Origin: Bacilli bacterium
Lineage (GTDB): Bacteria > Bacillota_I > Bacilli_A > RF39 > UBA660
DNA: 64,000 nucleotides
NCBI GenBank assembly: GCA_017515795.1
Contig: JAFWEE010000013.1
Coordinates: 2,010-66,009, forward strand
Reading direction: 5' to 3'
Shown here in pieces: positions 15,992-48,819 of this stretch (positions are counted from its first letter, which is position 1; each line of letters opens with the position of its first letter). The position numbers and the translations under genes were made by a program. Below the pieces are notes generated by a model, which saw only the letters and a program-made list of their open reading frames with translations, did no database searches and was not told the DNA's origin.

Positions 15992-17530
15992 TTAAAAAAT
16001 TATTTCCACACAATTTTCGTTAATGATATTTTTAATATAGTTTATAAAAGGTATTAATAATTTTGTGTTATCTTTAACTAATGAATATAAATTATATAAA
16101 TATTCGAAATAACATTTTTCAATTTCTACTTCAGAAAAAACTGTTACTCCATCAAGGAAATATGACATTTTTACTTGATCATTGAATAATAATTTATCTA
16201 ATTTATAAGGTATATTTTCAATTAGTTCTTGTACATTGATTTCAGAAAGTTCATATGATATTTGAAATCTAACATCTAATTCTGAATTACCAAATCTATC
16301 AGTTTTTTCATAATAAACAATATTGTTCATAATATCAGTTAATTGTTCTTTTATTTCCTTATTAGTGATTTTTTTATCCACTATAATCTCTTCATTTACT
16401 TTTTTGCTCTCTTTAAATCTTTTTATATCTTCTTCTATTTGTTCAATACTTTGATATCTTTCGTTTTGATCATTTATTAAACATTTATCAATAATTTTAT
16501 CTAAAAATTCCATTCTAATACCTTTATATTTATCAGTAATAGGTTTGCGGTGTGTTCCTTTATGTGGCTCATTATATACAATCCATTGCATTATTTGACC
16601 TATTGAAAATATATCAGATGCCTCAGTAGGTGTTTTCTTTCTATCTCGCTGTTCAGGAGCAGAAAAATCAAAGTTTGCCAATCTATCTCCTTTTTGAGTT
16701 TTAATATTTATATCAAAATTATCTGGATTATAATATGCTATCCCAAAATCAGCAATATTTAATCTATTATTTTCGTCAATTAGGATATTGTTTGGCTTAA
16801 GATCTCTATGAATAATTCCACTAGAATGTAGCTTTTTTACCGCATTTATTATTTGTGTAAATATCAATATAATTTCATCATCGGAAAATTTTTCTTTATA
16901 GATTAGGCTATTATTATACTTTTTCATAACTATAATAGGAACTCGTGCTTCATTAATTATTATATCATCATAAAAATATTGTTTAACTATTCCTTCAAAA
17001 TTATTAATTTCCATAATAACATTAATAAATTCGCGAAGAAATCTTTCCTTTTTTTCAGCAGTTGAGTTCGTAAGAATTTTAATAGCTACATCATGCTTAT
17101 TTAATTCTCCAAAATATACTTTGCCATTAGCTCCACATTTACATTCAAGAGATACATTTTTTATACATCCCATTCTTGTATTTATTTCAAAGTTGTTTTC
17201 TTTTAAATATTTACTTATATCCATTTCTTTAGAATAAACTTTTGTTTCTACATTCATATTATTCTCCATATTATCAATTAATGGGTAAATTATTTCTTTT
17301 AGTCGATCTCTTCTTTTTTCATATCCACCTATTTTTTGAAATTCGTGTCTTAAATCATGTTTTGTTTTGGATTTTTTTAATTCATTTGGAATATCAACAT
17401 TATATTTAACAAGACATTTCTTTAGACTATTCAAATTATTATAAAATAAATTTTCATCATAATCATTTTTATTATATGTAACAATGTCCTCTAATGCTAA
17501 ATAAAAACCTTTTAACTCTTTTATATCCAT
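15992..17530 (-). CDS. Hanks-type Ser/Thr protein kinase, soluble, with extra N- and C-terminal domains
   Basis: [32 protein letters not shown] all intact; no TM or PASTA. Confidence 0.92.
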
Positions 17531-17562
17531 GATACCCTCCTAAAATAGCTTTATTATATCAC

Positions 17563-17990
17563 AAAAAAAGAGCAAGAGTACAGGTAAATTCCCGCAGTCC
17601 TGCTCAATATTCTTGGTGCACGAAAAGACAGTACAGCAAGTATTTATAATTAGAGCTGTGGGAAATCGGTATGATCGCCCATCAAATGGTGCTCTAATTA
17701 TATAATTAATAGTTGGAGCCTCCAACCACTATCATAGCAACTGGATTAACGCTCCAACTACCGCATTTCTTACTATCCAGTTATATTTAATTAACTATAT
17801 TTCTAATTTGAATCTCCTATAGTAAATCGTAATAAATCTAACATATAAGTATTTTATAATTGTATCTTGTAACAAGCACATAACATGTAATTTGCAAGAG
17901 TATTAAAAAATCTATATTGGATAGTAAAAAACACTTGGGCTAAAAACTTTATATTTTATTTAATCTACAAAATAACTTAGTAGAACCCCA
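17563..17990 (-). ncRNA. Candidate ~430-nt structured RNA downstream of the DIP1984-like gene
   Basis: Helices 17645-56/17691-702 (12 bp), 17710-19/17751-60 (10 bp) crossing 17739-46/17775-82 (8 bp), long-range 17770-79/17918-27 (10 bp); GC-rich hairpin plus U7 at 17563-17605; no credible ORF. Confidence 0.65.
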
Positions 17991-17994
17991 ACTG

Positions 17995-18495
17995 CTAAAT
18001 CTCAAATTCAACAGAATTCAACTTAGATATTTCAAAGTCTGTTTTCTGTATTTCATTATCGATTTCTTCTAGTCTTTCTCTTAGTTGTTTAGAGTCGAAG
18101 TTTACTTTCTTACACTCAAAATAAGAATTATTAACTTCAGTTACTCTCTTTTTCGAATCCTTTAACATTAATAGTTGCTCATAAGTTGATTTAAGCTTTC
18201 TTAAATTAGTATTGTCTACTATTGCTTGTTGTATACTTCTTCCGTCGCTTAGTTTAAACTCGTTGTTTCTATCATATAGAATTCCCTTTAATTTAGATAA
18301 TTCAGTAGCACTTCTTTCTATTTCTTTTAGATCTAGATCAAATTCTTCTTTATTATCTTCAATTACGTTAACTCTTCCATCTAGTTCTTCAACTGATGTG
18401 TTGATAGCATACCCTTTAATAGAATAACATCTACTATTTAAGTATCTTTCATATTCTGATATTAAACTCATTAATGCTGAAATATTAGTTTTCAT
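17995..18495 (-). CDS. Coiled-coil protein, DIP1984/DUF6847-like
   Basis: 166 aa from ATG 18495 (AAAGGAG RBS); helical hairpin pattern, SIQQAI, C-terminal LEEIDNEIQKTDFEISKLNSVEFEI; family call from memory. Confidence 0.5.
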   Translation of the reverse strand: MKTNISALMSLISEYERYLNSRCYSIKGYAINTSVEELDGRVNVIEDNKEEFDLDLKEIERSATELSKLKGILYDRNNEFKLSDGRSIQQAIVDNTNLRKLKSTYEQLLMLKDSKKRVTEVNNSYFECKKVNFDSKQLRERLEEIDNEIQKTDFEISKLNSVEFEI

Positions 18496-18548
18496 TATAA
18501 TCACTCCTTTTGATGTAATTAATATTACTACACTAAAAGACGTAAGTG

Positions 18549-18565
18549 GTCGCGAAAAAAGCGAC
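18549..18565. promoter_or_regulatory. GTCGC-N7-GCGAC palindrome, putative operator
   Basis: GC-rich inverted repeat in an AT-rich 83-bp gap between the HTH gene stop and the next start. Confidence 0.6.
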
Positions 18566-18578
18566 AAAAAAAATACTG

Positions 18579-18947
18579 TTATAAAACAGTACCTGTGTAA
18601 GTATAGAGATAATCGTTTATGATATTTAAATCATAAATCTTCTTATCTAGACAAAACGCAATAACCAAATCAAATCTAGTATTACTTAATGAATATCCAG
18701 CACTATTTAACAATCTGTTAAAGTCATTTCTGTTTAAACATAAAGCAAGTCCTAGTTTGATAACTACATTCCTTCTAGGAATATAGTTGCTACTACATCT
18801 TATCTTAGAAAATAATTTTCTATCTATATCTACCTTTTTGTAAATCTCAGAATCCTTAACGCCCTTTTCATCTATGAAAGAGAAAAGAATTTCGTTAAAG
18901 CACATTGATCTACTGTGACTTAAATAGTCCTTGCAAACCTCTTTCAT
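18579..18947 (-). CDS. XRE-like HTH protein (family also seen fused C-terminally to macro domains)
   Basis: FIDEKGVKDSEIYKKVDIDRKLFSKIR...KLGLALCL...LLNSAGYSLS..FDLVIAFCL. Confidence 0.75.
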   Translation of the reverse strand: MKEVCKDYLSHSRSMCFNEILFSFIDEKGVKDSEIYKKVDIDRKLFSKIRCSSNYIPRRNVVIKLGLALCLNRNDFNRLLNSAGYSLSNTRFDLVIAFCLDKKIYDLNIINDYLYTYTGTVL

Positions 18948-19095
18948 ATGAACCTCCTATAATTTTAAAATTCTTAAATACACCGAATAAGTGTAATTTC
19001 TACCCAAATCATAAGGTTCAATCACTTATAATTACATTAGGACTTTCATATAAAAAATATTTAAATCACAGAGTTGATTTCTCAACTCGTTATAA

Positions 19096-19124
19096 AATAT
19101 ACCATATAATTGTTAATATGTCAA
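19096..19124 (-). promoter_or_regulatory. Sigma-A promoter of the HTH gene
   Basis: TTGACA-17 bp-TATATT with extended -10 TG on the minus strand. Confidence 0.75.
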
Positions 19125-25270: not shown

Positions 25271-26167
25271 TTATTTCTTAATATCTTTTTTACTTACTGG
25301 ATTAACATGTACCATTACATGTTTAACTTTATCATATTTCTTTTCTAACTTATCATGAATAGTCTCTGCTATATCATGTGCTTCTCTTAAAGTAAGATTT
25401 TCATCTAAACATATTTCAAGATCTATATATACTTTACTACCAAATAATCTAGTCCTAAGTAAATCAATTTCTTTAACATCTTTATTTTTCTTAACATAGT
25501 CATATATTTCTTTTTCAAACTCTTCATCACAAGAATGGTCTACTACTTTATTAGTAGCATCCATAAATATATCTATTGAAGCTTTAACTATAAATATAAA
25601 GATAACTATACTTGCTACTGAGTCCATTATTGGATAACCTATTCTTGCAAAGAATATACCTATTAGAGCTCCTACTGAAGATAAAGCATCTGATCTATGA
25701 TGCCAAGCATCTGCCATTAAAGCGCTTGAATCTATTTTTTTAGCATTATATCTAGTATACCAATACATAGATTCTTTAACTACTATGGAAACTAAGGCTG
25801 CTATTAGTGCAAAAACACCTGGAATAGTTATACTGCCAGTATTACCATCTAATATATTTTTAAGTGCACTATAAAATATACCTGAACCAGTTAAAAATAG
25901 TATTACTGAAAGTATCATAGCAGCTACACATTCTAATCTTTCATGTCCATATGGGTGTTCTTTATCTGGTTCTTTAGAAGATAATTTAATACCTATTATA
26001 ACTACAAAAGAACTAAATACATCTGAAGCGGAATGAATAGCATCACTTATCATTGCACTTGAATGTGAAAAGATACCTGCTAATAATTTGAATACTGCTA
26101 ATAATATATTTCCTATAATCGAAATAATAGATACCTTGTTAGCAACCCTTTTAAATTCATTTTTCAT
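25271..26167 (-). CDS. Cation diffusion facilitator transporter
   Basis: SDAIHSASD, HPYGHERLE, ADAWHHRSD, HVMVHVNP; start moved to ATG 26167. Confidence 0.93.
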   Translation of the reverse strand: MKNEFKRVANKVSIISIIGNILLAVFKLLAGIFSHSSAMISDAIHSASDVFSSFVVIIGIKLSSKEPDKEHPYGHERLECVAAMILSVILFLTGSGIFYSALKNILDGNTGSITIPGVFALIAALVSIVVKESMYWYTRYNAKKIDSSALMADAWHHRSDALSSVGALIGIFFARIGYPIMDSVASIVIFIFIVKASIDIFMDATNKVVDHSCDEEFEKEIYDYVKKNKDVKEIDLLRTRLFGSKVYIDLEICLDENLTLREAHDIAETIHDKLEKKYDKVKHVMVHVNPVSKKDIKK

Positions 26168-26184
26168 ATTTTCCTCCTTAAAGG

Positions 26185-26285
26185 ACAAAAAAACATCCTA
26201 GTTCAATGTAATTACACTGTCCCATGGATGTTTATCCACTGTTATATATTATAACCCGACTCCTAATGGTCTGATCAGTTTTACT
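26185..26285 (-). promoter_or_regulatory. NiCo (czcD) riboswitch with terminator
   Basis: Minus strand AAACTGATCAGACC..GTCGGGTT..AACAGTGG..CCATGGGACAGT matches the NiCo aptamer pattern; ACATCC/GGATGT-U7 terminator; upstream of a CDF gene. Confidence 0.8.
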
Positions 26286-26334
26286 TAATTAAATGTAAGT
26301 AAATTATAATATATGAAGTTATATTAGTCAATTA

Positions 26335-48693: not shown

Positions 48694-48722
48694 TTGACTA
48701 TAAATACTAAATATAGTATATT
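48694..48722 (+). promoter_or_regulatory. Sigma-A promoter of ffs-tadA
   Basis: TTGACT-17 bp-TATATT, placing the start near 48729. Confidence 0.75.
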
Positions 48723-48728
48723 AAACAT

Positions 48729-48799
48729 GCACAACGAGAAAATTGGAACCTGGTCAGGACAGAGATGTAGCAGCCATAACAGTTCCTTCTCGTGTGTGC
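48729..48799 (+). ncRNA. ffs: Small signal recognition particle RNA (4.5S-type)
   Basis: GGAACC-TGGTCAGG-ACA-GAGA-TGT-AGCAGCC helix 8 signature; terminal stem GCACA.CGAGAA/TTCTCG.TGTGC. Confidence 0.88.
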
Positions 48800-48819
48800 T
48801 TTTTTATTGGAGAAACACT

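Follow-up and report, generated by a model that had tools for sequence, protein, structure and literature searches.

A structured RNA encoded directly behind DUF6847 genes of gut bacteria and phages, a candidate partner of a DIP1984-like protein

We analyzed a 64,000-nt stretch of DNA from a Bacilli bacterium (assembly GCA_017515795.1, contig JAFWEE010000013.1), here called the window, and within it a gene-free interval on the minus strand. Read along that strand, the locus consists of a promoter, a gene for a 122-aa protein (18579..18947), a gene for a 166-aa DUF6847/DIP1984-like protein (17995..18495), 464 nt without genes, and a Ser/Thr kinase gene of 512 codons (15992-17530). The promoter is a prediction of the sigma-70 type (19096..19124), with TTGACA, a 17-nt spacer and TG-n-TATATT (11/12 matches, with the TG). 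A hairpin, GAGUUGAGAAAUCAACUC, lies at 19071-19088 in the presumed 5’ leader. The 122-aa protein had no match in Pfam, NCBIfam, PADLOC or the PDB and a weak one to PHROG 4031. The kinase matched the PADLOC defense models PD-T4-6, mad6 and Stk2 with E-values down to 4e-32; its gene has an extended -10 element of its own, TGTGATATAAT, at 17563-17553, and past it lie genes for a zinc-ribbon protein, an HNH nuclease, a DGQHR protein and a restriction-modification pair.

The 166-aa protein reached the Pfam family DUF6847 (PF20935) exactly at its cut-off (27.0 bits, cut-off 27) and scored 29.9-30.4 bits against the NCBIfam model DIP1984_fam (NF038048), below that model’s curated cut-off of 70 bits. 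By these scores it is a distant relative of DIP1984 and, by the curated threshold, no member. An AlphaFold2 model (pLDDT 93) showed helices alternating with beta-hairpins, and its best and only fold match was PDB 3KDQ (TM 0.62), the DIP1984 protein deposited in 2009, a solved structure without known function from a family labeled ‘septicolysin’. More than 1100 homologues were present in gut metagenomes. The most conserved residues, KLSDGRSIQ and RVTEVNNSYFE, lie in and beside the predicted beta-hairpins, a position in the model that would suit a binding surface. The protein contained no recognised RNA-binding domain and matched no PADLOC model, and a BLAST search of GenBank phages with the protein and with the 3’ half of the downstream interval gave no match. 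We found no paper naming DUF6847, PF20935 or NF038048; ‘DIP1984’ and ‘septicolysin’ were found only as annotation labels.

A preliminary description, made from the letters of the window, had read the interval behind this gene as a structured RNA of about 430 nt that partners the coiled-coil protein encoded upstream. Every sequence element it listed was present where it had been placed (string check). The minus strand of 17540-17995 folded at -122.3 kcal/mol, compared with -90.4 +/- 5.2 for shuffled sequences (z -6.15), while the plus strand of the same interval gave a z of -3.3. Between the DUF6847 gene and the RNA we found neither a terminator nor a convincing promoter, and gene and RNA are presumably co-transcribed.

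The RNA matched no known class, as the preliminary description had supposed from its pattern. A comparison of the whole window with Rfam 15 at gathering thresholds returned two RNAs only, both elsewhere: a NiCo riboswitch (26215-26288, minus strand) upstream of a cation-efflux gene (25271-26188), and a small SRP RNA (48719-48812, plus strand). With E-values up to 10 allowed on 17400-18100, three chance-level matches appeared (best E 0.42), and nothing matched in the RNA regions of related loci. A scan of the window for tRNA and tmRNA found none, and no tandem repeats were found in the region. Coding potential was equally absent: the longest open reading frames in the RNAs had a median of 25 aa and were alike only between near-identical loci, so that no conserved small ORF emerged. 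The RNA family is thus undescribed, having neither an Rfam family nor a paper that we could find.

We assembled a set of 86 distinct regions that lie downstream of genes whose proteins are 49% to 100% identical. Comparison with about 90 related loci divided the region into a conserved core and a GC-rich 3’ half. The alignments delimit a predicted core RNA of about 285 nt, 17991-17708, that recurs family-wide; the earlier reading of a folded RNA therefore stands for this part, whereas the last 140 nt of its 430 are specific to the lineage of the window. The preliminary description had suggested a search for covariation at homologous loci, and across about 85 of them the core covaries strongly. 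RNAalifold, run on 11 close relatives, recovered the four helices P1-P4 unaided and left the interior open.

The most conserved part of the RNA had been omitted from that description. About 55 nt are conserved in the family right after the stop codon, and alignments, pair counts, the covariance model described below and RNAalifold agree on a three-helix junction there (17935..17991 in the window). P1 (17991-17987/17939-17935) has the family form NNGG/CCNN. P2 (17984-17980/17968-17964) has 5 bp and a conserved loop, UAAGUUAUUUU at 17979-17969, with the consensus nAAGUUAUUyn. A junction segment, UUAAAU at 17963-17958 ((U)UAAAU in the family), leads into P3 (17958-17954/17945-17941). Two alignments were made, one fitted to the structure and one not. 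In the unfitted MAFFT alignment, 79.7% of cells were paired, compared with 66.5% in shuffles, and double-sided changes numbered 206 against 81, a value reached by 0/500 shuffles; controls with slid registers were 27-53% paired. P2 was 99.4% paired in this alignment, with covariation in 5/5 pairs. A kissing interaction between the P2 and P3 loops looked attractive in some loci (AGGUAU/AUACCU in L102 versus AGUUAU/AUAACU in L110), but overall it was no better than cross-locus controls (-2.02 versus -1.56 kcal/mol).

Beyond this domain the RNA is organized by one long helix around a large loop. The 10-bp long-range helix of the preliminary description, TTACTATCCA (17927-17918) with TGGATAGTAA (17779-17770), proved to be the loop-proximal part of P4, whose true length in the window is 17 bp (5’ arm GUGUUUUUUACUAUCCA, 17918..17934; 3’ arm UGGAUAGUAAGAAAUGC, 17763..17779; -21.8 kcal/mol). 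In the family, P4 begins 2-4 nt past the 5’ domain and has a median of 18 bp, with a sequence that differs in almost every locus. At -18.9 kcal/mol it is more stable than helices formed by shuffled arms (-10.3) or by arms that belong to different loci (-11.5). G.U pairs account for 8%, and in 55/75 loci pairing is better on the sense strand. In L166, the closest relative that has sequence in this region (99% identity for the protein, 84% for the RNA), P4 is maintained by a paired deletion of one base and by a change from U.G to C-G.

P4 closes a loop that is A/U-rich and 100-190 nt long in the family; in the window it measures 138 nt (17780..17917) and has no conserved internal structure. What recurs in the loop is a set of strand-specific motifs of the type UUACAAU/UUAUAAU. 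The sequence TTACAATT is 25-fold enriched in family loops, and TTACA occurs there 147 times forward versus 16 times as its reverse complement. TTA triplets spaced 6-7 nt, flagged as a weak signal in the preliminary description, reflect a 7-nt period that is real across the family: the autocorrelation peaks at lag 7, with 227 TTA pairs against 61 expected and 72 TTA[CT]A pairs against 2 expected. The window’s own loop is less regular than those of many relatives. Its UUAYA-type motifs start at 17890, 17883, 17872, 17859, 17848 and 17832, at start-to-start spacings of 7, 11, 13, 11 and 16 nt, so that 7 occurs once. A promoter inside the loop was considered and rejected, as no -35/-10 pair stands at the correct spacing.

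Right after P4, nearly all loci have an intrinsic terminator, a hairpin followed by a U-run; relatives show CCAAC...GUUGG and a run of 5-7 U at this position. The window has at this position the hairpin T1 (17708..17762; stem 17760-17751/17719-17710, TAGTTGGAGC/GCTCCAACTA) in rearranged form, with a duplicated GUUGGAG (17729-17720) and no clean U-run. The sequence that follows the stem is UAUUAAUUAU, and a strong terminator comes 140 nt later. L166 keeps T1 by way of one compensatory change from G-C to A-U. The second GTTGGAG copy noted in the preliminary description does exist, but is confined to the window’s own sub-lineage. The same description had drawn an H-type pseudoknot and switch, in which AACTGGAT (17782-17775) leaves the long-range helix to pair with ATCCAGTT (17746-17739). 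We found no support for it as a conserved feature because this alternative helix, AACUGGAU/AUCCAGUU, keeps only 4/8 of its pairs in L166, while P4 is kept there; it is a complementarity specific to the window and broken in its closest relative. In another sub-clade (L097:3254-3400, also L100, L103, L109, L120, L134, L136 and L139), the terminator stem is interrupted by a structured element of about 125 nt that has a closing helix GAAAAUUAAC/GUUAAUUUUC and two hairpins. It had no Rfam match and is not present in the otherwise similar L118. This insertion differs from the addition in the window, so that 3’-end additions are recurrent.

The addition in the window is a GC-rich 3’ extension (17563..17702, minus strand) made up of a 12-bp stem that closes a GC-rich loop (17702-17691/17656-17645), a hairpin A (17640-17612) and a terminator B with its U7 (17605-17570 and 17569-17563); this U-run adjoins the -10 element of the kinase gene. 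The GC contrast reported earlier is genuine: 17563-17705 has 38.5% G+C, compared with 26.1% for the window, and ranks in the top 0.7% of its 143-nt windows. Likewise the 12-bp stem and the GC-rich hairpin with U7 of the preliminary description are present and keep their pairing, but they are conserved solely in one close relative, the metagenome contig L167, and the extension was not found in other family members. Every substitution in L167 within the 12-bp stem, hairpin A and terminator B preserves pairing, and several yield G.U pairs that are possible solely on the minus-strand RNA. An exact-pattern metagenome scan for the GC-rich loop of the 12-bp stem gave no match. Since T1 in the window’s lineage has lost its U-run, the transcript there would probably run through this 140-nt add-on to the terminator at 17605-17563 and reach about 430 nt. 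Hairpin A and terminator B recur, at 84-94% identity and with compensatory changes, behind unrelated genes in other species of the genus (G006:C2:6030-6117, G011:C12:21238-21270, G012:C12:7274-7306), together or singly. Congeners also have them singly after other genes, which gives them the look of borrowed terminator modules, as if such modules were exchanged between loci.

The boundaries of the unit could be read from L167, which carries the same RNA and no kinase gene. The window from 19111 to 17553 is 93.85% identical to this contig over 1561 bp, both flanks are unrelated, and the homology begins inside the predicted promoter, at 19111. The conserved cassette (17553..19111, minus strand) thus holds the promoter, the 122-aa gene, the DUF6847 gene and the RNA with its extension. 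The leader hairpin described above is also kept in L167, with one change in its loop. Because L167 shares the extension between unrelated flanks, the extension is part of the DUF6847 cassette and not of the kinase island. From such alignments, the module appears to move horizontally as a 1.56-kb cassette. A role of the RNA as a riboswitch or T-box leader of the kinase gene was considered and rejected: the downstream genes differ from lineage to lineage, L167 has no kinase gene, and the kinase gene has its own -10 element.

To follow the RNA across genomes, we built a covariance model of its 5’ domain, R1, and ran it on 88 loci, from gut bacteria and a phage contig. In 85/88 of these, R1 found exactly one match, right behind the DUF6847 gene. 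The genome of the window had a single significant match, at 17991-17935 (78.1 bits, E 5e-16). Among 401 genomes of the family, R1 matched 12; 11 of these were among the 12 carriers of the gene, and the match always lay directly after it. The partnership of RNA and protein put forward in the preliminary description fits this genetic linkage. None of the genomes of the same genus had the module, and because of this we regard it as accessory and horizontally spread. The start of the RNA falls 3-10 nt past the stop codon in most loci, 6 nt in the window, and 42-47 nt in two loci.

The neighborhood is otherwise variable. In the first contigs compared, a gap of some 500 nt invariably came after the 122-aa and 166-aa gene pair, with outer flanks that varied (Fic/integrase; RecG...RNase Y; MMPL...DUF285). 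The only recurrent neighbor was the 122-aa gene upstream, in 41/86 loci; downstream genes were not conserved, and no repair, replication or recombination gene recurred near the loci. The two exceptions to the pairing of gene and RNA were L052 and L154. L052:1999-2120 (G199) keeps the DUF6847 gene and has lost the 5’ domain and the 5’ arm of P4; with part of the loop, the 3’ arm of P4 and the terminator left, it looks like a natural 5’-truncated RNA. L154:1501-1549 (G346:C7:53986-54034) is an orphan 5’ domain (R1, 37 bits) with no DUF6847 gene upstream, placed among small ORFs and an XRE-like gene in a region that looks phage-derived. At L110:1585-1870, a group II intron (Rfam D1-D4 models, 131 bits) lies right after the terminator of the DUF6847 RNA, a site as expected for terminator-targeting bacterial introns.

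A related arrangement extends to the wider protein family and to phages. Behind genes for DIP1984 proper in other Bacilli there is likewise a stretch of 230-350 nt that lacks ORFs and contains a long-range helix and a terminator. R1 had no match in these RNAs, and the likeness of the RNAs across the whole protein family appears to be architectural. The viral contig L161 carries the same RNA as the window (R1, 60 bits). In two large phage contigs, L163 and L164, a tRNA array (7 tRNAs in one contig; 18 tRNAs and a tmRNA in the other) is followed by a DUF6847 homologue, a region of about 340 nt, a dUTPase-like gene and an RNA ligase gene. The ~340-nt region is closed by a 12-bp helix, GUAAGAGAAUAU/AUAUUCUCUUAC, and contains ACAAUU motifs. 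Inside the array of L163, upstream of the DUF6847 homologue, we also observed a skipping-rope RNA (L163:2500-2687; RF02924, 50 bits). Past the DUF6847 homologue of a 103-kb viral contig (L162:6505-6660) are strings resembling the D-arm and T-arm of a tRNA, GGCGGAATAGGTAGACGC ... GGGTGCAAATCCCAACC, for which ARAGORN made no tRNA call. Near the bacterial loci of the clade, tRNA genes were not enriched (10/60, about the expectation from tRNA density).

Taking the observed conservation, covariation, strand, genetic linkage and cassette boundaries as the starting point, we consider it rather probable that the gap contains the RNA component of a conserved DUF6847 module with two parts, an undescribed ribonucleoprotein, of which we infer the binding and the function. 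In the mechanism we propose, the DUF6847 gene would be transcribed jointly with the structured RNA downstream, and the protein, as an oligomer, would bind the RNA on the 3’ side of its own gene. Its binding sites would be the loop motifs, which at their regular spacing would make a multivalent single-stranded platform, and the P1-P3 domain together with P4 would provide a rigid handle. A common transcript for gene and RNA would permit assembly of the particle in cis. The phage contexts, with tRNA arrays and an RNA ligase gene, point to a probable role of the module in the surveillance of RNA or tRNA or in conflict between phage and host.

Tentatively, a wider reading can be drawn, in which DUF6847/DIP1984 proteins and their RNAs would constitute a ribonucleoprotein widespread among bacteria and phages, active on tRNA or on damaged RNA in phage-host conflict, with the 7-nt units (U-UAY-AA-U) in the P4 loop as the sites of a protein oligomer. 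More speculatively, these units could pair in a codon-like manner with tRNA anticodon loops, an idea that arises because UAC and UAU are the tyrosine codons and stand here with a purine next; in T-box specifier loops, too, the codon is followed by a purine.

The same linkage could arise if the RNA were a cis-acting 3’ untranslated region that stabilizes, localizes or feedback-regulates the DUF6847 mRNA with no working particle involved, either because the terminating ribosome unfolds P1 or because the protein binds the tail of its own mRNA. The linkage is indeed strict and always in cis, no promoter or terminator separates gene and RNA, and, as most loci have the RNA start 3-10 nt past the stop codon, the 5’ strand of P1 would be covered by a ribosome that terminates there. 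We nevertheless judge this reading unlikely. An RNA of some 285 nt that combines a motif array with a conserved three-way junction and four covarying helices far exceeds the needs of known stabilizing 3’ hairpins, two loci have the domain start 42-47 nt past the stop, and the extra domains specific to lineages (in the window and in the L097 group) suggest an RNA evolving in its own right.

We are more doubtful still of a toxin-antitoxin-like or abortive-infection module in which the RNA neutralizes the protein in the manner of type III systems. The patchy distribution (12/401 genomes of the family, no congeners), a small cassette that moves horizontally beside defense genes, integrase or Fic, and short motifs repeated in the RNA are what such a module would present, and the type III systems ToxIN, CptIN and TenpIN likewise join a protein to an adjacent non-coding RNA in small mobile modules that are often near defense genes. 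Their RNAs, however, are tandem 34-45-nt repeats upstream of an endoribonuclease toxin, whereas here one structured RNA without a tandem repeat array lies downstream of a gene for a non-nuclease fold. The protein is unlike nucleases of the ToxN/AbiQ type and matches no PADLOC model, and the phage copies, in tRNA arrays beside an RNA ligase gene, are atypical for an addiction module. Membership in type III was accordingly rejected on the missing tandem repeats, the position of the RNA downstream of the gene and a fold that matches 3KDQ only.

It is very improbable that the element works at the level of DNA, as iterons, a promoter array or a recombination site. The TTACAAT/TTATAAT motifs are direct repeats that resemble -10 hexamers. 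Against this reading, the helices show covariation and retain G.U pairs, which the opposite strand would turn into A.C; the motifs have a 9:1 strand bias, an intrinsic terminator closes the unit in almost every relative, and no replication or recombination gene is conserved nearby. Least credible of all is a chance composite of the terminators and leaders of neighboring genes with no function of its own, which the lack of conservation of the 3’ 140 nt in the family and the solitary recurrence of hairpin A and terminator B behind other genes in congeners would allow for 17702-17563 at most, and which is refuted for the core (17991-17708), since that is conserved and covaries over about 85 loci with protein identity down to 49%.

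Several known systems resemble parts of the proposed ribonucleoprotein. Ro60 (Rsr) and the bacterial Y RNAs of the YrlA type share its layout: next to the protein gene stands a structured RNA devoted to that protein and some hundreds of nucleotides long, remote segments of this RNA are brought together by a long helix that encloses a large loop or module, and the pair is present in bacteria and phages near genes for tRNAs and RNA repair, represented here by a phage tRNA array with an RNA ligase gene. Ro60, however, is a ring of HEAT repeats, while the DUF6847 model alternates helices with beta-hairpins; no Rfam Y RNA matched, the clade has no tRNA-like domain, the loci examined contained no rsr gene, and the heptad motif array has no counterpart in Y RNAs. 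We therefore rejected membership in the bacterial Y RNA/Ro60 family, given in addition that the neighbors are the 122-aa gene, the kinase and ABC transporters.

The loop recalls TRAP with the trp leader, CsrA with CsrB, and Hfq, in which a small oligomeric RNA-binding protein meets short single-stranded motifs at regular spacing in an otherwise unstructured stretch; that DUF6847 proteins also oligomerize is suggested only by the partly coiled-coil fold of the model. The motif here is UUAYAAU with a 7-nt period, in contrast to their GAG/UAG or GGA, and the RNA is encoded with its putative binding protein and is not a target of it. TnpB omega RNA similarly starts at or just past the 3’ end of its gene, on the same strand, and is inherited with it, but here there is no nuclease domain, transposon end or variable guide segment. 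Finally, the large orphan RNAs OLE, ROOL, GOLLD and raiA of Firmicutes, whose functions are at best partly known, are conserved, ornate, covarying RNAs of low-GC Gram-positive bacteria and their phages as well; no Rfam model of them matched, and the DUF6847 RNA is smaller and linked with a single protein family.

Whole fields have grown from dedicated pairs of protein and RNA, among them SmpB-tmRNA, Ro60-Y RNA, SRP and the guide-RNA nucleases. The features to point to in the present case are the strong covariation in all four helices, the unusual 7-nt motif array and the phage setting between tRNA arrays and an RNA ligase gene. The RNA adds to the gut Bacilli, largely uncultured, a family that current annotation has missed, and its cassette, at only 1.56 kb, is small enough for cloning. 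For DUF6847/DIP1984, whose structure has been solved (3KDQ), it supplies a specific candidate RNA partner, through which the function of the protein becomes directly approachable.
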